NCBI GenBank assembly: GCA_965261685.1
Contig: CBDHDI010000018.1
Span: forward strand, 13,029-77,028
Length of the DNA stretch: 64,000 bases
Direction: 5' to 3'
DNA from: Dehalococcoidia bacterium
GTDB lineage: Bacteria; Chloroflexota; Dehalococcoidia; UBA2979
The notes under the pieces are model-generated. The model searched no databases. It saw only the letters and a list, made by a program, of their open reading frames with translations, and was not told the origin of the DNA. Within the stretch, counting starts at the first letter, position 1. Each line of letters begins with the position of its first letter. Shown one piece after another: positions 3,901-64,000 of the stretch. Position numbers and translations under genes: made by a program.

Positions 3901-4072
3901 CGAGTACGCCCGCGAGAAGGGCGAGGCGTACTGGCTCTACGTCGTTGAGCACGCTGGCACGGACCACACCGCGATCGTGAAGATCAACGACCCGGCGGGC
4001 AGGGCGTCCACCTACACCTTCGACAAGGGTTGGCGCGTAGTGGCTGCTCCTGCGGCCCCGCCTCTGCCGTAG
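977..4072 (+). CDS. Sacsin/NOV-like GHKL ATPase with C-terminal DUF3883 (PD-(D/E)XK-like) nuclease domain
   Basis: N-terminal FELLQNAEDA and GRFGIGFKSVY GHKL motifs. C-terminal NNPGFDL...WIEVKA...VTLTHTQFEYA...YWLYVVE. AAGGGA RBS-like sequence upstream. Confidence 0.85.
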   Translation: MPSDYARISRENERKYGTDIGRIGPTLLGNRYADRTHFVFELLQNAEDARGRSNGRAGSRRVRFALANGAVRFSHFGERFTPKDVRAICGIVEGTKEDDLTAIGRFGIGFKSVYAVADLPAIHSGDEHFEVRDYVHPRAVAPIPLDDGETVIALPLRERDADAPGEVAEQFERLGEARTLLFLREISEIEWSVEDGPSGCCRREETVEGEGVRRVRLHSEIAGEDPLEESWLVFSRSVQHDGKSAGYTELAFKLAPDGSGEDVIETVDRSRLAAFFPTEIRTDLGILVQGPYRTTPNRETIPWADAWNRHLVTETATLLVDALCYLRDRGLLGVHVFDALPLNRRRFSGHFFEPMFDAVHEAIRSEPLLPAHRGGQVAASQAWLARGQGLRELISREQLATLVGADAPVSWLSDDITADRASRLRSYLMDEHDVREIEAGSLPPLLDKDFLEAQSDEWIRRLYEFLSGQPALRRRFASAPLIRLDDGTHVTPKIGGEPVAYLPVKPPSGYPTVCRPACASRLALAFLKSLDLRRPDPVDEIVNHVLPQYRETDFTASGGEYEQHLQRFLRAFGTDSRERRERLIEALSDTSFVRVVDAGTGERSFIRPEDAYLATRRLRDLFKGVPSVLLVDEPLRRDEVTRLLEACGAVRGLYPVSLSEIEDWDPEQLGEMRKEAGEERITRSRAESLTNWEFRGLDQLLEYLQTLPPEDASDRAGLLWEALRKAASRPGQPGFRARYEWFYTTNRSYKFDSTAVQTLNWEAWVPDGSGGLQPPSRVEFASLGWRRGEFPESIIKFRQPKRPSPFVEFAEAQKIDPEVLAAVIDATREGDLSADELREAVREYKASRASTDSTSRDAHKWGAVSITSGVGDAGNTGGGPTSGGERVFETYIRVERESVGTAEGGPEHGRRMGVEEAAIALILDREPSLKRTPPNNPGFDLYEVGEDELPVRWIEVKALAEGWESHPVTLTHTQFEYAREKGEAYWLYVVEHAGTDHTAIVKINDPAGRASTYTFDKGWRVVAAPAAPPLP

Positions 4073-4591
4073 AGGAGTCCCCCTCCTGCCCAGACACCAG
4101 TTAGCCGGGGGGGGCCCCAACAGGCCGGCGTGCTCCCGAAACCATGGCCGCCGGGATGGCAGGCTGCGGGCCCCAAGCGCAACTCGCGAGCACATTACCC
4201 AGCGTGGCGACGGCGCGGCGGGTGTCCTGGTCGGAGTCGGTCACGATCAGCGTGACGCGAGGCCGCACGCCGTAAACCCATGCGTTCGCTGGGCCTGATG
4301 CGGTAGCGCATGTTGGCGGTGCTCAACATCGGCCCCTGCCGCACCCCGCTAGAACGTGCCGCCTCGGTCACCGTCGCGATACCGCACGACGATGTTGCTC
4401 GCCTCTCCCTTCCGCGTGTTCTGGACGATCACCCGGACTGGCGTCAGTCCGCCGATCGTGGAGTTCACCGTCCCGCGAGGATCCTGTTCTTCGCCGTCAA
4501 GTTGGCGACGGGTTAGGCGGCCCGGCTCAAGCCATCACCGGAGGGCTGTGATGACCACTCGTCGCCACACGCGCCGGCACGGAACTGCGGC

Positions 4592-39377: not shown

Positions 39378-39629
39378 CGCTGCTCCCTCCCCTGGGGATA
39401 CAGCCGATGGTGGCCCTACCGGCGACCGGGCTGGTCGCGATGCCCTGGCGGGGGCGGATCAATGATCCTGGCGAAGTGGTGTCGACGGTCAGCGATTTCG
39501 TCAGTAGCTAACTGGTCAGATTGGCATGAGGGCCGGTCTCCTCCTCAGGGGGATACTCGTCCCCGAAACAGCGGCCTCGATTGGGCCAGTAGCGGCTCTG
39601 CGGAGCCTTGACGAGGTAGGAGACCGGCC

Positions 39630-40718
39630 ATGCAGCAGGATATCGCAACGACGCGGAGCATTGAGGGCAGGGAAGGGTCAGGGGTCACCATCGGCCTCGA
39701 CGTGGGCGACCGCTACACACACATCCACGCCCTCGGCGCCGGCGGGGAGGTGATACGCGAGCGGCGCGTCCGCACCACGGCGGCGGCGCTGGGCGCAGCG
39801 CTGACCGGCCTCCCCCCGGCGCGGGTCGTGCTCGAGGCGGGGCCGCGCTCGCCGTGGCTGAGCCGCGTCATGGCGGACCTCGGCCACGAGGTCATTGTCG
39901 CCAACCCCCGCCAGGTCGCGCTGATCGCCCGCAGCCAGCGCAAGACCGACCGCCTCGACGCCGCGTGGCTGGCGCGGCTGGGGCGCTTCGACCCGGAGCT
40001 GCTCGCCCCGATCCGCCACAGGAGCGAGCAGAGCCAGTATGACCTCGCTGTGGTGCGCGGCCGCGACGCGCTCGTGCGCTCCAGGACGCTGCTCATCAAC
40101 CACGTGCGCGGGGCCGTCAAGGCCTGCGGCGCCGCGCTGCCGTCATGCACGGCCCGGGCCTTCCACCGCAAGACGGCGGAGCACATCCCTGACGGGCTAC
40201 GGGCGGCGCTGCTGCCGCTGGTGGAGGCGATCGGCGAGCTCACCGCGCACATCGCGCGGGCCGACCGGGAGATCGAAGCACTGTGCGAGGCTCGCCCCGA
40301 GACCGCGGCGCTGCGCCAGGTCAGCGGCGTGGGGCCGATCACCGCGCTCACGTTCGTGCTGACGATCGAGGATCCAGGGCGCTTCCCGAAGAACCGGGAG
40401 GTGGGGGCCTACCTCGGACTCGTGCCCCGGCAGCGCGAGTCAGGAGAGCGCGCGCCGCAGCTCGGCATCAGCAAGAGCGGCGACGCGGGCCTGCGGCGAC
40501 TGCTGGTGCAGGCCGCGCACTACATCCTCGGCCCCTTCGGGCCCGACACCGACCTGCGCCGCTGGGGTGAGCGCTACGCGGGAACAGGGGCGGGCAACGC
40601 GAAGAAGCGCGCGGTCGTGGCCGTCGCGAGGCGGCTGGCGGTGCTGCTGCTCGCGCTGTGGAAGACAGGCGAGGTCTACGAGCCGCTTCGCCACGCCGCT
40701 GTCCGGGAGGCCGCGTAG
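39630..40718 (+). CDS. IS110/IS1111 DEDD recombinase
   Basis: IGLDVG, VLEAG, KTDRLDA and LGLVPRQRESG...ISKSGD motifs. Confidence 0.95.
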   Translation: MQQDIATTRSIEGREGSGVTIGLDVGDRYTHIHALGAGGEVIRERRVRTTAAALGAALTGLPPARVVLEAGPRSPWLSRVMADLGHEVIVANPRQVALIARSQRKTDRLDAAWLARLGRFDPELLAPIRHRSEQSQYDLAVVRGRDALVRSRTLLINHVRGAVKACGAALPSCTARAFHRKTAEHIPDGLRAALLPLVEAIGELTAHIARADREIEALCEARPETAALRQVSGVGPITALTFVLTIEDPGRFPKNREVGAYLGLVPRQRESGERAPQLGISKSGDAGLRRLLVQAAHYILGPFGPDTDLRRWGERYAGTGAGNAKKRAVVAVARRLAVLLLALWKTGEVYEPLRHAAVREAA

Positions 40719-40830
40719 CGGGGAGCGGCTGCCGCAGGCGGCACCGCTAGCGACGACCGAGACCGAGCGGAAAGCGGCAACCCGGACAGGAGCGAAGCGT
40801 TCGAAGCCTTGCGCGTGATGCCGAACCACC

Positions 40831-40963
40831 GGGCGACTGCGAAGATTCGCTTGTCCCATCGAGGACGTTGGTCAGCTGGCAGCGCCCCCTGGAAGCAGGA
40901 TGTGCCTTCATGCACCGGGCCCGATGCGCGGCCCACGGAGAGTGCGGATAGAAGCTCGGCACA
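40831..40963 (+). ncRNA. Predicted bridge/seekRNA core (target- and donor-binding loops)
   Basis: Stem GGGCG(A)CTGC/GCAGCGCCC encloses AGATTCGCT, a GTCC/GGAC hairpin and TGGTCAGC, matching both target strands. A second stem TGTGCC/GGCACA encloses ATAGAAG, matching the donor end. Confidence 0.72.
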
Positions 40964-41092
40964 GGCTCCGCTCCCGGACATCACGAGCAGCTCAGCATGG
41001 ACCAAGTGTCGCGCCACGGCGCCACGCCGGACGAGGCCGCCACGTCGGCCTTGCAGAAAGACCGTCCCTCATAGAAGCGATTCTGTCCTTCC

Positions 41093-56004: not shown

Positions 56005-56422
56005 GCGCGCTTCTTCGCGTTCCGTGCTCCTGTTCCCGCGTAGCGCTCACCCCAGCGACGCAGATCGGTATCCGGCCCGAAGGGACCGAGGATGTAGTGC
56101 GCAGCCTGCACCAGCAGCCGGCGTAGGCCTGCGTCGCCGCTCTTGCCGATGCCGAGTTGCGGCGCGCGCTCGCCCGAGTCGCGCTGCCGCGGCACGAGCC
56201 CGAGGTAGGCCCCCACCTCACGGTTCTGCGGGAAGCGCCCCGGGTTCTCGATCGTCAGCACGAACGTGAGCGCGGTGATCGGCCCCACGCCGGTGACCTG
56301 GCGCAGCGCCGCGGTCTCGGGGTGGGCCTCGCACAACGCCTCGACCTCCCGCCCGGCCGCCGCGATGCGCACGGTCAGCTCGCCAATCGCCTCCACCAGC
56401 GGCAGCAGCGCCGGGCGCAGCC
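56005..56422 (-). pseudogene. 3' fragment of IS1111 transposase (partner of 62888-63459)
   Basis: LRPALLPLVEAIGEL...NAKKRA; homologous to 39630-40718. Truncated before the stop and the non-coding region. Confidence 0.88.
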
Positions 56423-58050
56423 TGTCGACGAGCAGCGATTTCGTCAGTGCAAGAGAGCAGCGACTTTGTCAGTCCCGCCGTCTCCGTCGGAGGATGCCGC
56501 GGTGCCGGTCTGGCGTCCAGGCACGCCGTTGGCCCGGACGTAGCTGCTGACGGTGTCGCGGGAGATCCCGAGCAGCCTGGCGGTTGCCCGCATCGAGAGT
56601 CCCTGTAGCCGCGCCTGCTGGATCGCCTTCCAGCGGGCGCGCTGTCGGGGCGTGGGTGGGCGGAGCTGCTTGCTCCCGGGCGCGGGCTTCACGGCGGCCC
56701 CGTTGGGCGCACCCTCCGCCGCCGGGACGGCAGGCGCCACGGGGAGCCGCCGGGGTGCTCCTCCGGAACCGAGCCCTGAGGCGATGCGCTCGTGGTCGGG
56801 GTTCCGGGCCAGCTCGGAGCGCGCCGCCCTCAACACCCCGGCGCGCGGCGGCGCCTCGCGCGAGGCGATCGTCTCCCCCTGGTGCAGGACGGAGAGCTCG
56901 CCGCCCGGCCGTTCCAGCACCTCGACCCGTGCCCCGGCGTAGCTGGTCCGCTCGCGCCCGGGCAGCAGCTGGAGCGTGCGCCAGCGATACTTGACCGTGT
57001 TGTCGCGGGCGACGCTGCGGGGGTGCCGGAAGCCGAGGATGGAGGCGAGCGGGAGCGCGGGGTCGAGCGGGCGGTAGGCCACCGCGGGCTCTGCCGCAGG
57101 GACCCGGAAGCGGGCGTTGAAGCGCGGCAGGAAGCGCTCGAGCACGGTCTGGGCCTCGGCGATGGTGGAAGCCGAGGCGTCGCTGAGTTCGGTCACCAAC
57201 CGGTCCTGGAACGTCCCTGCGGCACGTTCCACGCGGCCCTTCGCCTGCGGTGAGCGGGCGAAGATCTGGGTGATCCCGAGTTCCCGCATCGCCCGTGCGA
57301 ATTGGGTTGCGACCTTCAGGCCCCGCCGTCCGTCGGAGGAGGCTTTGAAGACGCCGTGGCGGTCGCTGTAGAGGGCGAGCGGGATGCCGCAGAGCCGGAC
57401 GATCTCCTCCAGCAGGAGGAAGTAGCCGCGCGCGTCCTCGACGGGGCGGAAGAGGGCGTGCACGGCTGCGCCGGTCGCATCGTCGACGGCGAGCAGCAAG
57501 GCGAAGCGCGGACCGCGTTGCTCGAGCCAGGCGTGGTGGCTGCCGTCGACCTGGAGCAGCATCCCCTCGCGGGGCATCCGCTCACGCCGGACACGGTGCT
57601 CGGGGGGCCGGCGGCGGCGGGGACTCGCGATGCCGGCCCGCGCCAGGATCCGGCGGACGGTCCAACTGCTCACGTCCAGGTCCTCGTGCTCCCAGAGCAA
57701 CTCGGCGAGGTGGGTGTGGTTCGCTCCCGGGTAGCGGGTGCTGGCGAAGCGCACCACGGCCGCGGCGACGGCGGCCGGGACGGCGTTGTGCGGACGGCGC
57801 CCGCGGTTGCCGTGCTCCAACGCGGCGGTTCCGCGCGCACGGTAGGCGGCGAGGAGCCGCCACGCGTGTCGCTCGCTGATGCCCAGGATCTCGGCGGCCT
57901 GCGAGGCCCGCAGATCTCCGGCCATCACCCCTTCGAGTACGTAGCGTCGTGCTTCTTCGGACTGCTGCACCTGTCACCCCCTGCTCGCTGGCTGGGGACT
58001 GACAGAATCGCTGCTCCGTTAACTACTGACCGAATCGCTGCTCAACGACA
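56423..58050 (-). mobile_element. ISNCY/IS1202-like element (second subtype)
   Basis: Ends TGTCGACGAGCAGCGAT and ATCGCTGCTCAACGACA with internal repeats. Confidence 0.92.
56444..57970 (-). CDS. ISNCY/IS1202-like transposase
   Basis: LQVDGS, DDATG, YSDRH and PQAKGRVER motifs. Confidence 0.93.
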   Translation of the reverse strand: MQQSEEARRYVLEGVMAGDLRASQAAEILGISERHAWRLLAAYRARGTAALEHGNRGRRPHNAVPAAVAAAVVRFASTRYPGANHTHLAELLWEHEDLDVSSWTVRRILARAGIASPRRRRPPEHRVRRERMPREGMLLQVDGSHHAWLEQRGPRFALLLAVDDATGAAVHALFRPVEDARGYFLLLEEIVRLCGIPLALYSDRHGVFKASSDGRRGLKVATQFARAMRELGITQIFARSPQAKGRVERAAGTFQDRLVTELSDASASTIAEAQTVLERFLPRFNARFRVPAAEPAVAYRPLDPALPLASILGFRHPRSVARDNTVKYRWRTLQLLPGRERTSYAGARVEVLERPGGELSVLHQGETIASREAPPRAGVLRAARSELARNPDHERIASGLGSGGAPRRLPVAPAVPAAEGAPNGAAVKPAPGSKQLRPPTPRQRARWKAIQQARLQGLSMRATARLLGISRDTVSSYVRANGVPGRQTGTAASSDGDGGTDKVAALLH

Positions 58051-59195
58051 TTCCGATCGCTCTAAAACCCGACCGCTGATCGGTCTAAAACTCGGCCACT
58101 CCAGGGCATGGCCCACCCTTGTGTCGGCGGGAGCCGGACGAGGTTGGGAGGAAGGGGATGCTCGGAGTGCAGGACATCTACGCGCTGCGGCACAAGGTCT
58201 TCGTCGAGGGCAAGAGCCAGCGCCAGGTGGCGCGCGAGATGGGGCTCGCGCGCGACACGGTGCGGCGCTACCTCGCGACGCCGCTGCCGGAGCCACGGAA
58301 GCGCAAGCGGCCGCGGCCGGTGCTGGAGCAGGTGCGGCCGCGCCTGGAGCAGTTGGTCGAGGAGTGGTCGGAGCGCACCACCGCGAAGCAGCGCATCACG
58401 GGCCGGAGGCTGCAGCGGGCGCTGCGCGAGGAGGGCTACGAGGTCGGGCTGACGCTCGTGCTCGAGTATCTGCGCGAGTGGCGCCGCACGCGCGCCGAGG
58501 TCTACGTGCCGCTGGTCCACCGCCCGGGCGAGAGCGCGCAGGCCGACTTCTTCGAGGTCAGCGTCGAGCTCTCAGGCGAGCGGCGCAAGGCCTGGCTCTT
58601 CCTGATGCGGCTGATGCACTCGGGGCGCGACTTCGTCCGGCTCTATGAGCGCCAGGACCAGCTCGCCTTCCTCGACGGTCACGTGCGGGCCTTCGCCCAC
58701 TTCGGCGGGGTGCCCCGGCGCACGGTCTACGACAACCTCGCAGCCGCGGTGCGGCGGGTGCAGTTCCCGCGCCGCGCCCTGACCGAGCGCTTCGCGGCGC
58801 TCGCCAGCCACTACGGCGTCGAGCCCTGCTTCGCGCGCCCCGGCGAGGGGCACGACAAGGGCGGCGTGGAGTCACGGGGCAGGGGCGTGCGGCTGCAGGT
58901 GCTCACGCCGATCCCCCGCGGCGACTCGATGCATGAGCTCTCGGAGCAGATGCAGGGGGAGGTCGACCGCCTGGCGCCGCAGCGGGTCTGGGAGCGCTTC
59001 GCCAGCGAGCAGCCGGTGCTGCGCCCCCTGCCGGATGTGGCGTTCGAGGCGCGGCGGCTGCAGCCGGTCTCGGTCAGCCGCAGCGCGCTGGTGCGCGTCG
59101 AGGGCGCCTGGTACTCGGTGCCGGAGCGCTGGGCGGGGCTCTCGGTCATGGCCTGGGTGGGCGTGGAGGAGGTGACGCTCAGCCTCGGGACGGAG
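58051..59195 (+). mobile_element. IS21-family element, 5' part
   Basis: Tandem GATCG.TCTAAAAC.CG.CC.CT end repeats (terminal TG missing) followed by istA. Confidence 0.8.
58158..59195 (+). pseudogene. istA: IS21 transposase interrupted by IS1111 and group II intron
   Basis: QADFFE, YDNL, HDKGGVE and YSVP motifs; homology stops at ...VTLSLGTE. Confidence 0.87.
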
Positions 59196-59257
59196 ATTCG
59201 CGGTAGGAGCGCCGGTTGCCCGGCGCCCCCCGCACAGATCCGGACGTGCGCGCTAAC

Positions 59258-60915
59258 CCGGGATCCACCGAAGAAGAGCGCATGAGCGGTTGCGGTTGGG
59301 TGCTCCGCTGTAGCTGGGACAATGGTTTTTGACCGAATCACGTCACAGCCACAGGGAGCACCCATTCGATGCTACCAACGAGCGACCCCGACCGGATAGA
59401 CATCGCCTTCGACGACGACCGCCTGGTGGCCGATGCGGGGCTGCTCCTCCCGGCCACGCTCGCCCAGCATCTCGGTTTGCAAGAGCTCGCCGACAGCTAC
59501 CTCGACCTCGGTGACGCGCCGGGCCGGGCGAACGCCGGCGACAAGCTGCTGACCCTGGTCGCCTCGGCGCTCGCGGGCGGCGAGTGCATCGACGACGCCG
59601 CTGCGTTGCGCGCCGGCGGGACGGCGAGCGTGCTCGGTTGCACCGTCAAGGCGCCGTCCACGCTCGGTGTCTTCCTGCGCAGCTTCAGCTGGGGCCACGT
59701 CCGCCAGCTCGACCGCCTCAGCCGCGAGTTGCTCGCCCGCAGCTGGGCGGCCGGAGCGGGCCCGGGCGCGGCGCCGTTCACGATCGACCTCGATTCGACG
59801 ATCTGCGAGACCTACGGCCTGGCGAAGGAGGGCGCCCGGCACCACGGCTACACGGGCGTGCGCGGCTATCACCCGCTGCTCGCCGTTGCGGCCGGGACGG
59901 GTGACGTGCTGATGGCGCGGCTGCGCGAGGGCCGCGCCAACACCGCCCGCGGCGCCGCCCACTTCCTGCGTGAGACGGTGGCGCGGGTGCGCGACGCCGG
60001 GGCGAGCGGGCAGCTCACGGTGCGCGCCGACAGCGGCTTCTACAACCACGCCGTCGTCGCCGTCTGCCGCAAGCAGGATGTCCGCTTCTCCATCACCATT
60101 CGCCAGCAGCCGAACGTACGCACGCTGATCGAGGCGATCCCGGAAGAGGACTGGACGCCGATCCCGTACTGGCTGCCGGGCGGCGCGGATGTCGCCGAGA
60201 CGACCTACACGCCGTTCCAGCACAAGGAGGATGCCACCGCGGTGCGGCTCATCGTGCGGCGCGTCAAGCCGACGCCCGGCTCACAGCTCGCGCTCTTTGC
60301 GAACTATAGTTACCACGCCTTCATCACCGATCGCGCCGGGGAGCTGCTGGAGCTGGAGGCCGACCATCGCCGTCACGCCGAGATCGAGAACACGATCCGT
60401 GACCTCAAGTACGGCGTCGGGCTGAACCATCTCCCCTCGGGCCGCTTCGGCGCGAACGGGGCGTGGCTCGCGGTGCAGGTGATCGCGCACAACCTCGCCC
60501 GCTGGACGGCGCGGCTCGGGCTCGGCGAGGGGATCGTGACGACCAGGACGCTCAGGCGGCGCTACTTCGCTCTCGCCGGACGGCTCACCCATTCTGCACG
60601 GCGCTGGACCCTGCACCTCGCGAAGCGCTGGCCCTGGGCTGGCCAGTGGGCAGCCGCCCTGGCGCGGTTACGGGCGTTACCGCTCCCGGCCTGACGCTCG
60701 CTCACAGCGCCAACACGGGTCCGAGGCTCGCGCCAGCATGCCCGCGCACGCCTCGCGCACCCTCGCGCCGGCGCCCTCAGCGCCCCCGAGCCGCGCTGAG
60801 CGACGCTGAGCGACGGCTCCTCGCTCCGGCACCGCCCGGCGAACGCCGGCACGCCCGCCGAACGCTCCGGCAGCCCGGCAGCCCGCCCCTTCAAGCTTCG
60901 ATCGGTGGATTCGAG
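59258..60915 (+). mobile_element. IS1380-family element, copy 4
   Basis: Same IRs as copy 2; 5-bp TSD CTAAC at 59253-59257 and 60916-60920. Confidence 0.95.
59369..60694 (+). CDS. IS1380-family transposase
   Basis: Near-identical to the other copies. Confidence 0.95.
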   Translation: MLPTSDPDRIDIAFDDDRLVADAGLLLPATLAQHLGLQELADSYLDLGDAPGRANAGDKLLTLVASALAGGECIDDAAALRAGGTASVLGCTVKAPSTLGVFLRSFSWGHVRQLDRLSRELLARSWAAGAGPGAAPFTIDLDSTICETYGLAKEGARHHGYTGVRGYHPLLAVAAGTGDVLMARLREGRANTARGAAHFLRETVARVRDAGASGQLTVRADSGFYNHAVVAVCRKQDVRFSITIRQQPNVRTLIEAIPEEDWTPIPYWLPGGADVAETTYTPFQHKEDATAVRLIVRRVKPTPGSQLALFANYSYHAFITDRAGELLELEADHRRHAEIENTIRDLKYGVGLNHLPSGRFGANGAWLAVQVIAHNLARWTARLGLGEGIVTTRTLRRRYFALAGRLTHSARRWTLHLAKRWPWAGQWAAALARLRALPLPA

Positions 60916-62415
60916 CTAACGCATCCGGCTCCTGCCTTGAGTGTTGACGGCAAATCGCTCCGTCGGCCACGGGTGGAGGATGGTCACGGGGGGCCAGTAC
61001 TCCCGGCGCAAGGCGTCCAGACGTTCCCATGGGTAGCGTGCCCGCTGCGACCTTCGGCGGATAGTCCGCATCCAGAGCCGCCGCAGGGACCACACGAATT
61101 GCGACAGCGACGGGCCGCTTGTGGGCACCGCGTAATAGCCAAGCCATCCGCGAAGCACCCGAGCAAGCCACCGTGCTGTCACCACCGGGTCGTCATGCAT
61201 GCGCCTACGCAACTCGGCCTTGATGGCCTTGAGGGTCCGTCGCATCCGCTTCGGGACCGGTTTCCGGCCCAGACCGAAGCGCCCATTGCGCTTTGTCCGG
61301 CAGTAGTGCGTGAAGCCGAGGAAGCCGAACGTCTCCGGTCGGCCCTCCCCGCGCTCCCTGCGGTTCGCTCTCGCGAACCTGCCGAACTCCAACAGGCGCG
61401 TCTTCTCCGGGTGCACTTCCAGCCCGAACGCTGCGAACCGCTCCCCGACCGCCTCCATGAATCGCTCCGCATCGCTGCGGTACTGAAACCCCAGGACGAA
61501 ATCATCGGCGTACCTCACGAGATACGCCTCGCCCCGGACCTCCCGCGGCCGCCATTCCCGCGCGAACCAGCCGTCGAGCACGTGGTGCAGGTATACGTTC
61601 GCCAGCAGCGGCGATATCACCGCCCCCTGCGGCGTCCCCCTCACCACGTCGACCTCTAGCCCCGCGTCGATGACGCCGGCGTTCAGCCACTTCCGGATGA
61701 GACGCAACACCCGCTGGTCCCCGATACGCATCTCCAGAAACTGCATCAGCTGCTCCCGGTCGATGCTGTCGAAGTACTGGCGGATGTCCACCTCCACTAT
61801 CCAGTTGACCTTGCGCCGCTCCACCGCGTAGGCCAGCGCGTCCAGCGCGTTGTGCGCCGAGCGCCCCGGCCTGAACCCGTAGCTGAATCCGTAGAACTCC
61901 GATTCGTAGATCGGGTTCAGGATCTGCTCCACCACCGCCCGCTGGACGATCTTGTCCTCCAGCGAGGCAATACCCAGCTGTCGCATGCCCCCGTCAGGCT
62001 TCGGTATCTCTACCCGCCGAACAGGGGCCGCCCGGTACGCTCCACGGTGTACGCGACCGTGCAGGTCGAGCAATCGCTCGTCCAGCCCGTCCCCGTACTC
62101 GCGCCACGTCATCCCGTCGGCGCCCGGAGCTGCGTCCCGCTTGAGCGCGAGATACGCATCCCGGAGCGCCTCCGGCGTGATGTGGTGCAGGAGCGCGGTG
62201 AGCCTCTCCCCCGGATTCCTCTTGACGAACTGCCGTATCCGCTCCGCTCCGGGTGACACCGCCCCCCGACTCTGCGTCCGGACCGTGCCGGTGCTTCGCG
62301 GATTCCTCTCGGCCGCGGCCCTTCGCTCCAGTGGCTCCGCCGGGGCTCGCGCCCCCTTGTTCGCCGCCTTCATCGCTACTACGGCCGCGTCAGACTGCTG
62401 CGCGTCGTGCATCAT
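60916..62415 (-). CDS. ltrA: Group II intron reverse transcriptase/maturase (no En domain)
   Basis: APGADG, IPKPDGG.RQLGI, SYGFRPGRS, GTPQGAVISPLLANVYL, RYADD, FLGFT and X domain. Start inferred at MMHDAQQSD. Confidence 0.93.
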   Translation of the reverse strand: MMHDAQQSDAAVVAMKAANKGARAPAEPLERRAAAERNPRSTGTVRTQSRGAVSPGAERIRQFVKRNPGERLTALLHHITPEALRDAYLALKRDAAPGADGMTWREYGDGLDERLLDLHGRVHRGAYRAAPVRRVEIPKPDGGMRQLGIASLEDKIVQRAVVEQILNPIYESEFYGFSYGFRPGRSAHNALDALAYAVERRKVNWIVEVDIRQYFDSIDREQLMQFLEMRIGDQRVLRLIRKWLNAGVIDAGLEVDVVRGTPQGAVISPLLANVYLHHVLDGWFAREWRPREVRGEAYLVRYADDFVLGFQYRSDAERFMEAVGERFAAFGLEVHPEKTRLLEFGRFARANRRERGEGRPETFGFLGFTHYCRTKRNGRFGLGRKPVPKRMRRTLKAIKAELRRRMHDDPVVTARWLARVLRGWLGYYAVPTSGPSLSQFVWSLRRLWMRTIRRRSQRARYPWERLDALRREYWPPVTILHPWPTERFAVNTQGRSRMR

Positions 62416-62778
62416 CGGCTCCGGTTGCTTCCCTTCCCGATGCGGTCCCGGCGTACGACACGCCGGGACGGCGCGCAGCCCTCCCCGGTCCCGGTGTTGG
62501 ACGTGCATGCGTGCGTGAGTTCTTTGACACCGCGGAGCCCGGCGACGGCTCGCCCTGTGGCGCCGTAACCGGTGTTGCCTTCGACCATACCAATAGCCTC
62601 GGCACTCCGAATTGCCCTTTTCGATGCTCGATAGCTCCGCCCGCATACCCCGCTGCCGACGCTTCGCGTGTCGCCTCGCGACGACCCACGCACGGCTCGC
62701 GGAGCGGCATGGAATGGCTCATTCCTTTGCCGCAGAGGACTTCCACCTCCTGCCCATCCACCAGTTAGCCGGGCGCTC

Positions 62779-63459
62779 TGGCATGAGGGCCGGTCTCCTC
62801 CTCAAGGGGGATACTCGCCCCCTGAAACAGCGGCCTCGATGGGCCAAGAGCGGCTCGGAAGAGCCTTGACGAGGTAGGAGACCGGCCATGCAGCAGGATA
62901 GCGCAACGACGCGGAGCATTGAAGGCAAGGATGGGCCCGCCATCACCGTCGGCCTCGACGTGGGCGATCGTTACACGCACGTCCACGCGCTCGGCGCCGG
63001 CGGGGAGGTGATACGCGAGCGGCGCGTCCGCACCGCGGCGGCGGCGCTGGGCGCAGCGCTGACCGGCCTCCCGCCGGCGCGGGTCGTGCTCGAGGCAGGG
63101 CCACGCTCGCCGTGGCTGAGCCGCGTCGTGGCGGACCTCGGCCATGAGGTGGTCGTCGCCAACCCTCGCCAGGTCGCGCTGATCGCCGGCAGCCAGCGCA
63201 AGACCGACCGGCTCGACGCCGCGTGGCTGGCGCGGCTGGGGCGCTTCGACCCGGAGTTGCTCGCCCCGATCCGCCACAGGAGCGAGCAGAGTCAGCACAA
63301 TCTCGCCGTGGTGCGCGCCCGCGACGCGCTGGTGCGATCGAGGACGTTGCTCATCAACCACGTGCGCGGGGCCGTCAAGGCCTGCGGCGACGCGCTGCCG
63401 TCGTGCACGGCCGTGGCCTTTCACCGCAAGACGGCGGACCACATTCCCGACGGGCTGCG
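62779..63459 (+). mobile_element. IS1111 element, 5' half (transposase 62888-63459 truncated)
   Basis: TGGCATGAGGGCCGGTCT left end as at 39522; VGLDVG and KTDRLDA motifs; cut at HIPDGLR by ISNCY. Confidence 0.9.
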
Positions 63460-64000
63460 TGTCGTTGAGCAGCGATTCGGTCAGTAGTTAACGGAGCAGC
63501 GATTCTGTCAGTCCCCAGCCAGCGAGCAGGGGGTGACAGGTGCAGCAGTCCGAAGAAGCACGACGCTACGTACTCGAAGGGGTGATGGCCGGAGATCTGC
63601 GGGCCTCGCAGGCCGCCGAGATCCTGGGCATCAGCGAGCGACACGCGTGGCGGCTCCTCGCCGCCTACCGTGCGCGCGGAACCGCCGCGTTGGAGCACGG
63701 CAACCGCGGGCGCCGTCCGCACAACGCCGTCCCGGCCGCCGTCGCCGCGGCCGTGGTGCGCTTCGCCAGCACCCGCTACCCGGGAGCGAACCACACCCAC
63801 CTCGCCGAGTTGCTCTGGGAGCACGAGGACCTGGACGTGAGCAGTTGGACCGTCCGCCGGATCCTGGCGCGGGCCGGCATCGCGAGTCCCCGCCGCCGCC
63901 GGCCCCCCGAGCACCGTGTCCGGCGTGAGCGGATGCCCCGCGAGGGGATGCTGCTCCAGGTCGACGGCAGCCACCACGCCTGGCTCGAGCAACGCGGTCC
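63460..64000 (+). mobile_element. ISNCY/IS1202-like element (runs off the window; transposase starts at 63540)
   Basis: Inverted copy of the left part of 56423-58050; starts TGTCGTTGAGCAGCGATTC. Confidence 0.92.

Follow-up and report, generated by a model that had tools for sequence, protein, structure and literature searches.

How does a group II intron come to lie within the very end of an insertion sequence (IS), beside the bases at which that IS recombines, and does the intron seek out such ends? The question is raised by a locus in a 64,000-nucleotide (nt) stretch of Dehalococcoidia DNA (referred to as the window; C18:13029-77028 of genome G000, an assembly of 4.1 Mb in 28 contigs), where an intron interrupts the left end of an IS1111-group element of the IS110 family. 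An earlier note, made from the letters of the window alone, had described the intron as homing into IS1111 left ends. The analysis reported here indicates that the intron, which lacks a detected endonuclease domain (En-less), very probably retrohomes through its exon-binding site 1 (EBS1) into the left end of one IS1111 subtype, designated subtype B. The parts of the locus needed to follow the argument are:

58119..59195, plus strand: istA of the IS21 family, interrupted by the IS1111-group element (NF033546, 247.9 bits; Pfam rve and Mu-transpos_C_2)
59194..59196, plus strand: AG core and the first base (A) of the IS1111-group element, separated by the intron from the remaining IS
59197..59251, minus strand: intron positions 1865-1919, comprising the 3' half of domain V and domain VI, ending in CCUACCGCGAA and identical to the tail of the intact copies
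60915..62778, minus strand: group II intron positions 1-1864, from the 5' end GAGCG through domains I-IV and the 5' half of domain V to the GTTAGC loop
60916..62415, minus strand: reverse transcriptase (RT)/maturase open reading frame (ORF) of 499 amino acids (aa) in domain IV, with RVT_1, TIGR04416 and YADD
62779..63459, plus strand: IS1111-group IS110 element of subtype B, consisting of TGGC, the repeat ATGAGGGCCGGTC and the start of the transposase, truncated after base 684

The presence of a group II intron, as proposed in the earlier note, was confirmed at the RNA and the protein level. RF02005 (group-II-D1D4-6) was the only Rfam family found in the window and matched 62743..62518 on the minus strand over the full model (1-225) with 165.6 bits, the gathering score being 49. 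The product of the ORF at 60916..62415 scored 350.7 bits with the NCBIfam profile TIGR04416 (group II intron RT/maturase; cutoff 300), contained RVT_1 as its sole Pfam family (2.7e-36) and showed the YADD motif in its translation. No endonuclease domain was detected in the 499-aa protein with the Pfam and NCBIfam profiles. Its closest PDB relatives were group II RTs (7uim, 1e-46; 6ar1, 6.4e-46); as a way to assign the intron class this search was discarded, since only generic group II RTs were returned, and PMC3552965 (in part) supplied no class motif of use. In the seven other identical copies in the genome the 1863 nt shared with the window continue into 56 more bases (the 3' half of domain V and domain VI) to give an intron of 1919 nt. 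A minimum free energy fold of the last 95 nt of the intact intron contained the hairpins of domains V and VI, with a bulged UA whose A lies 7 nt from the end, and AGC is present within GAGCCGG. The intact copies are probably still active, to judge from the eight identical copies, the open ORF with YADD and the AGC of domain V. Across the family, domain V mostly ends in ACGGAUC and not ACGGUUC, with a G-A facing the usual G-U of the AGC triad helix, which was flagged as non-canonical by cmscan; in L033 and L034, which start with the canonical GUGCG, domain V carries GGUUC.

The exact junctions were established by comparing three states of one IS21 context in the genome. Twelve uninterrupted copies read GGCGAAGCAGCGGCTGACGG (also given as GGCGAAGCAGCGGCTG; around the core, GGCGAAGC-AG-CGGCTG). 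One copy with the IS only (C18:81894..80373), which constitutes the empty site, reads GGCGAAGCAGA followed by TGGCATGAGG (...GCAGA-TGGCATGAGG; GCAG-A-TGGCATG), and six copies with both IS and intron read GGCGAAGCAGAT-TCGCGGTAGG (...GCAGAT-TCGCGGTAGG). From this comparison the core is AG and the IS is ATGGC-ATGAGGG...CCCTCAT-AGA and, with the subtype B empty site as reference, the intron in the window spans 59197-62778, i.e. 3582 bp including an inserted element; intact copies run from GAGCG to CGCGAA. At the window's own site AG is likewise the joint, because in a contig from public run X3 the sequence beyond 59195 is that of an IS21 without interruption. The insertion point is AGA^TGGC (for subtype B written out, AGA^TGGCATGAGGGCC), inside the 7-bp left extension of the IS and antisense to the transposase; it lies 1 nt inside the AG core or, in the convention of PMC11187229 (in part), 3 nt into the 7-bp left extension. 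Read in intron orientation, the 5' exon CCCUCAUGCCA is followed by GAGCG...CCUACCGCGAA and then by UCUG. The 5' end GAGCG (62778) abuts TGGCATGAGGGCCGGTC, the left end of the IS110-family element, and the DEDD_Tnp_IS110 ORF follows.

These junctions bear out the location in an IS1111-group left end and the opposite orientations of the intron (minus) and the transposase (plus), and they alter several details of the earlier note. Its placement of the intron 2 nt inside the IS end had to be moved to AGA^TGGC. The deletion by which it rebuilt an intact site was matched to 39518-39539, a copy of the 88% identical subtype A that has an extra T; the true match is the subtype B copy at C18:81894..80373. 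The 5' terminus GAGCG was correctly recognized as non-canonical, and the proposed 3' termini, ...CGCGA or ...GAAT, neither of which can go with a GAGCG start, were off on account of that extra T, the empty site giving ...CGCGAA.

Group II introns usually have the termini GUGYG...AY. The present termini, GAGCG...GAA by the empty-site comparison, vary with those of the family: GUGCGCC is found at the 5' end of some members and GAAAGCG, GAUAGCG, GAACGG or GAGCG in others, and the 3' end is invariably CCCUACCGCGA followed by a single base, which is A here and C or U in the distant members. The more distant members thus start with GUGCG and end with ...GAC. This variation across the family marks the odd termini as a trait of the lineage, and the eight identical copies with their open RT frame argue that GAGCG...AA is functional. 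The DNA is equally compatible with a one-base shift, AGAGCG...CGCGA, which the EBS1 register described below does not support.

The same junction occurs eight times in G000, with identical introns or the 88% variant, and is present on five contigs of the assembly and in the complete-chromosome records L014 and L016; this repetition excludes chance. Public sequencing runs were consulted as Logan contigs and not as raw reads, the contigs from RNA libraries being uninformative on transcription or strand. A 255-nt contig of run X2 covers 62527-62781 and so crosses from the intron into the IS by 3 nt. No public-run contig joined 59196 to 62779, as an IS without the intron at this locus would.

Recognition of the target was examined through the EBS1 loop and its partner in the exon, intron-binding site 1 (IBS1). 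The base pairs between EBS1 (UGGUAU, 62587-62592, minus strand) and AUGCCA, the end of the exon, include one G-U. The loop sits in the domain I hairpin GGCT-ATTGGTAT-GGTC (in RNA, GGCU-AUUGGUAU-GGUC), which is the variable-loop hairpin of the Rfam alignment. The 5' 440 nt of 23 sequences (three copies from G000 and 20 loci found via the RT) were aligned, and the loop was found to co-vary with the last 6-7 exon bases. Cognate loop and exon paired over 5-7 bp in 14 of 14 distinct intron/site pairs, with a mean of 6.07 bp, in comparison to a mean of 3.54 bp for non-cognate combinations (n=174), of which 11 reached 6 bp or more. Representative pairs are:

This intron: EBS1 UGGUAU, exon AUGCCA (ectopic copy, GUACCA)
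L017-type: EBS1 UGGAUU, exon GAUCCA or AAUCCA
L011: EBS1 GUGGAU, exon AUCCAC
L015: EBS1 CAGCGA, exon UCGCUG
L020: EBS1 UCACUA, exon UAGUGA
L030: EBS1 UAAGCG, exon CGCUUA
L033: EBS1 ACCACG, exon CGUGGU

The covariation establishes the EBS1-IBS1 register, and with it the pairing of TGGTAT with ATGCCA that had been put forward from this single locus. For EBS3 the approach had no power, since near-identical introns have different +1 bases.

The host element was characterized from its ends and from its intact relatives. The ORF at 62888-63487 belongs to Pfam DEDD_Tnp_IS110, and the alignment of 62779..63459 with the intact IS covers 682 nt (query bases 5-684) at 91.6% identity; owing to the truncation, the occupied copy in the window keeps only PF01548. 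The IS ends are AGATGGC-ATGAGGGCCGGTC...GACCGTCCCTCAT-AGA, with a 7-bp left and a 3-bp right extension (subtype A has one more T at the left) and 13-bp subterminal repeats that match at 12 of 13 positions. Non-coding ends extend for about 108 nt before the start codon on the left and about 360 nt after the stop codon on the right, and no Rfam family matched the right non-coding end. For the IS1111 group, subterminal inverted repeats of 11-13 bp are described, with extensions of 7 bp at the left and 3 bp at the right (PMC11187229, in part), and further family features found here are given in PMC11208160 (in part). Because the left and right extensions differ, only one end of such an element offers the intron its site.

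The right non-coding end of subtype B contains GCGAAGCAGATGGCAG, equal to the left junction of the IS21 site, and CAGCCGCTT, the reverse complement of the right junction. In subtype A, GCGAAGCAGATGGCAG is replaced by TGGTCAG, which matches the left flank of that subtype, CTAACTGGTCAG, in an ISNCY-type end repeat; the right non-coding regions of the two subtypes differ exactly at these target-matching places. Taken together, these features identify the host as an IS1111-group element with a putative RNA guide. Since its guide segments match the junctions, the guide would read across AGA-TGGCA, the spot that is split by the intron.

Subtypes A and B are 88% identical, and it is B that carries the intron. 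The window also contains an intact element of the other subtype:

39517..41077, plus strand: IS1111-group element of subtype A without intron, AG-ATTGGC-ATGAGGG...CCCTCAT-AGA-AG, in an ISNCY-type end repeat

Its ORF at 39630-40718 has both PF01548 and PF02371 (NF033542, 243.4 bits). Six identical copies of subtype A were found, all in the same place, after base 38 of the ISNCY-type end repeat (TGTCGACGGTCAGCGATT..CTAACTGGTC-AG); the ISNCY-type end repeats concerned lie at 39455-39518 and 63460-63520 in the window. Subtype A thus appears as an RNA-guided IS aimed at the end repeat of another IS, a habit said to resemble that of IS4321/IS5075 in Tn21 ends.

A search of G000 with the intron returned eight copies that were 100% identical over 1863 nt, one 88% copy and one 50-nt scrap. 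Seven of the eight identical copies lie in subtype B elements and one is ectopic; the 88% copy lies in a diverged IS. The scrap, at 4061-4109 on the minus strand of the window, is 86% identical to intron positions 6-55 (CCCGGCTAACTGGTG..GGGCAGGAGG) and has no recognisable intron around it. Left ends were occupied in 7 of 9 subtype B elements, in none of six of subtype A and not in the single, more distant relative (76%). On the 5'-exon side the two subtypes agree over 25 nt; position +1 of the 3' exon is A in subtype A and U in subtype B. The copy at 39520, presented earlier as an unoccupied homing site, is in consequence a doubtful one: the +1 base (A and not T) and the occupancy of 0/6 make it probably a poor target and not a waiting one.

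The ectopic copy (C28:720050) lies outside any IS110 match, and its site resembles the usual one: its 5' exon is CCUCGUACCA, against CCUCAUGCCA in the IS, and its 3' exon is CCU, against UCU. A 479-aa frame ends 3 codons past this junction and has no match to a Pfam family. The six occupied copies compared above form one IS21 composite, having 3580 nt upstream and about 335 nt downstream in common and diverging beyond; they may represent six homing events or a single one multiplied by IS21. Independent insertions include at least those in the IS21 composite context, at the different IS21 site of the window, at the ectopic site on C28 and in the 88% lineage. On contigs with a clear GC skew, 4 of 4 copies lie on the G-rich strand, the presumed lagging-strand template, with n=4 and contigs from a metagenome-assembled genome (MAG). 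Priming on the lagging-strand template is expected for En-less introns such as RmInt1 and RmInt2 (PMC4615759, in part), with which the bias is weakly consistent.

The course of events that best accommodates these data is as follows. The EBS1 loop UGGUAU(G) would pair with (C)AUGCCA, the reverse complement of TGGCAT, the first bases of the IS left end; the intron RNA would reverse-splice between AGA and TGGC, antisense to the transposase; and copying would probably be primed at the replication fork, as in RmInt1. The insertion would be expected to disable the IS, as the intron separates the left target flank and the core from the IS end read by the guide RNA of the IS. This expectation is based on the guide match that spans the split site and on ISEc11, in which circle formation was abolished when the target bases that flank the donor were replaced (PMC11187229, in part).

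Relatives of the intron in other genomes show how its targets change with distance. The same junction, adjoined by an IS110-family transposase, recurs in two further Dehalococcoidia chromosome records, L014 (92.6% at the nt level) and L016 (96% over 1123 nt), so that the 92-96% relatives lie in IS1111-type left ends. In the relatives at 83%, which come from other Dehalococcoidia records, both the EBS1 loops and the sites are different. L017, L018 and L045 are inserted in the left end repeat of IS1380 elements with the transposase right behind (CCUGAUCCA^CCGAAGAAGAG), and an IS1380 copy in the window (GGGATCCA-CCGAAGAAGAG, 59260) is an empty site for this type. L015 splits an ISNCY-type end repeat between its bases 10 and 11, and the second intron of L012 lies inside another intron at about position 122. 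L011, L019, L037 and the L012 fragment have in common a 14-nt motif like an IS1380 end, with no IS1380 body detected, and the site of L013 is elsewhere. For L011, L013, L015, the L017-type and L037, the five that were checked, the EBS1 of each matches its own site. The earlier note expected close homologues to be flanked by IS1111 left ends or circle junctions; the outcome was mixed, IS1111-type left ends being found for the 92-96% relatives, and IS1380 or ISNCY ends or another intron for the 83% relatives. A pattern for the intron 5' end retrieved 11 loci from JGI metagenomes with diverse gene-like exons, none of which adjoins an IS1111-type end, and a longer junction pattern gave no match there.

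Two further arrangements were observed among the relatives. L012:958-2660 is a twintron-like nest in which the inner intron has the EBS1 CUACUG and the exon end is CGGUAG. L020-L027 and L038 are nine copies of an intron related by 53% at the protein level, all in one deltaproteobacterial MAG and inserted in runs of a 7-nt repeat (GGTGAAT/AGTGAAT); their exon end UAGUGA matches EBS1 UCACUA.

ISs in turn have entered the introns. An IS1380 element occupies the domain V loop of the window copy, and an IS110-family element of about 1.45-1.53 kb lies in domain VI, at CCUA^CCGCGAA beside the branch A, both in G000 (C27:805570..802100) and in L014 (L014:4546-6090). In these the true intron end, CCGCGAA followed by TCTG, comes after the domain VI element, and the outer flanks differ between G000 and L014. 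Another IS110-family element (73% to the IS of the window) is found at about position 12 of the inner L012 intron, and an IS630-family element at position 1123 of the L016 intron. It is tempting to see here a reciprocal arms race, in which the intron clade reprogrammes EBS1 onto IS1111, IS1380 and ISNCY ends and so disables these ISs, and IS110 and IS1380 elements in turn target intron essentials, namely the 5' end, the domain V loop and the domain VI branch site; we regard this reading as unlikely, though worth stating. If it held, two kinds of RNA-guided mobile elements would be opposed, with the intron acting as a transposon brake.

Retrohoming into subtype B ends has to be weighed against other histories of the same nested units. 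The most serious of them, possible though clearly the less probable, is that the intron entered the IS only once or twice and that the nested unit was multiplied by the outer element, IS21 or the IS1111-type IS. The shared 3580 nt upstream and about 335 nt downstream of six copies, which amount to a complete IS21 and beyond which the copies differ, are what such multiplication predicts, as are the complete identity of all copies and the nest of IS, intron and second IS110 found at two target flanks in two genomes. The last observation would require either repeated efficient homing or movement of composites and, if composites can move, the intron would not fully block the IS. Multiplication by the outer element does not explain, however, why one IS21 copy holds the IS without the intron, why the window copy is in a different IS21 site or why the ectopic C28 copy is in no IS; these three force at least three separate intron insertions in any case. 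It also has to contend with the guide of the IS, which would read across AGA-TGGCA where the intron has split it. The opposite order of events, with an RNA-guided IS inserted beside a pre-existing intron and using its 5' junction as target, has a precedent in that IS110 elements do enter these introns (at about position 12 in L012 and in domain VI in G000 C27:805570 and L014). It is nevertheless highly improbable, as an IS without the intron is found at the very same position in IS21, between the same two flanks, the guide segments match the IS21 flanks and not the intron, and EBS1 matches the IS end and the ectopic site and not the IS21 sequence that would otherwise form the 5' exon. Mis-assembly, or chance juxtaposition of repeats in a MAG, would come to mind in a 28-contig assembly crowded with repeats prone to mis-joining; with the junction on five contigs and in the complete-chromosome records L014 and L016, and crossed by the X2 contig at 62527-62781, it can practically be dismissed.

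Several findings weigh against retrohoming into IS1111 left ends as the preferred reading. Six of the eight copies belong to one IS21 composite and could stem from IS21 transposition and not from homing, and the triple nest of IS1111-type element, intron and second IS110 in domain VI is found in G000 and in L014 at IS target sites that differ. L014, at 92.6% identity and in the same IS end, has a loop (CUCCAAUU) that does not fit the AUGCCA exon; in L014:2638-3000 the EBS1 hairpin is replaced (GACC-CUCCAAUU-GGUU), with no match to the exon, which may reflect recombination with another intron. A candidate EBS2 region, the variable segment that links the GAGC..GAA helix to the EBS1 hairpin, was compared with exon positions -15..-7 and rejected, as its pairing showed no preference for cognate (4.73 bp) over non-cognate exons (4.34 bp, n=200). 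The termini depart from GUGYG...AY, and RF00029 (domains V-VI) scored 33.3 bits (E 7e-4) on the intact copy L003, below its gathering score of 40. Finally, the 16-nt junction motif CTCATGCCAGAGCGCC was sought in 401 genomes of the class and found in 6; in the five outside G000, out of 400 others, BLAST detected no intron homology and the motif is apparently a coding one.

The copy in the window has been damaged by two further elements:

59258..60914, plus strand: IS1380-family element of 1657 bp in the domain V loop, transposase ORF 59369-60694
63460..64000, plus strand: ISNCY-type element with left end TGTCGTTGAG CAGCGATTC, truncating the IS1111-group element

The IS1380-family element, which the earlier note did not mention within the 3582 bp, was identified by NF033539 (329.2 bits) and Pfam DDE_Tnp_1_4. 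It has the ends CCGGGATCCACCGAAG and CTTCGATCGGTGGATTCGA and is flanked by a duplicated (G)CTAAC at 59252-59257 and 60915-60920. About 40 near-full-length copies are present in G000, and in 4 public runs Logan contigs join across the element, in line with the existence of intact forms. Since it splits domain V, RF00029 gave no match in the window at E<=1. The ISNCY-type element cuts the host IS after base 63459; its ORF at 63540-63998 is partial and scored 145.1 bits with NF033594, under the cutoff of 250. With domain V interrupted and the host IS truncated, the window copy is a fossil that should no longer be able to splice or move. The missing part of the truncated element (bases 674-1095, 89% to subtype A) was located at 56005-56426 on the minus strand, about 7 kb upstream and in opposite orientation, beside the ORF of another ISNCY-type transposase (56444-57970, minus strand). 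The overlap of the two parts at bases 674-684 suggests a target duplication of about 10 bp followed by inversion between two ISNCY copies, or a mis-join.

The wider interest of the locus derives from the nature of its target. IS110/IS1111 elements are RNA-guided recombinases and, if circle formation is prevented, the intron would provide a natural means of inactivating a bridge/seekRNA transposon in a sequence-specific manner. The locus and its relatives also provide a natural series, in which one scaffold is combined with at least five EBS1 loops directed at three IS families, another intron and ordinary genes, and they supply active-looking introns with the termini GAGCG...AA.

Among the papers listed by a full-text literature search, none has a title or opening of the abstract that describes a group II intron homing into an IS110/IS1111 end. 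IS1111-attC elements reportedly target attC sites in integrons. The group IIC-attC introns offer a parallel, in that an intron lineage and IS1111 elements seek the same type of recombination site (PMC3001079, in part); there, however, both target attC and not each other, and class C uses a stem-loop where the present intron uses a 6-7-bp EBS1.

A close likeness is RmInt1 of Sinorhizobium meliloti, which is En-less, uses a multi-copy IS (ISRm2011-2, IS630 family) as its homing site and recognizes it by EBS/IBS pairing (PMC5894124, in part). Ectopic insertions at similar IBS sequences (oxi1), a lagging-strand preference and a proposed block to the spread of the IS are described for it in the same source (in part). 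RmInt1 belongs to class D/IIB3, whereas the class D motif LX3AX3PXLF[V/A]HW, as given in the cited part of PMC4615759, is absent from the RT/maturase of the present intron, which has the C-terminus LDALRREYWPPVTILHPWPTERF and no HW dipeptide in the whole protein. The site of RmInt1 lies in ISRm2011-2, whereas here it is the 7-bp terminal extension of an RNA-guided DEDD IS, and the termini are GAGCG...AA. RmInt2 (S. meliloti GR4) is alike in targeting IS end repeats, the inverted repeats of ISRm17, and in that all its copies are identical (PMC4615759, in part). The sister introns L017, L018 and L045 in the IS1380 left repeat and L015 in the ISNCY repeat likewise target end repeats; the present intron differs in that the left and right extensions of its IS1111-type target are unlike each other and that its insertion site adjoins the recombination core and lies outside the subterminal repeat. 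The locus therefore extends a known pattern of introns in ISs and their end repeats, set by RmInt1 and RmInt2, and does not constitute a new one; its points of interest are the IS1111-type target and the reciprocal insertions.

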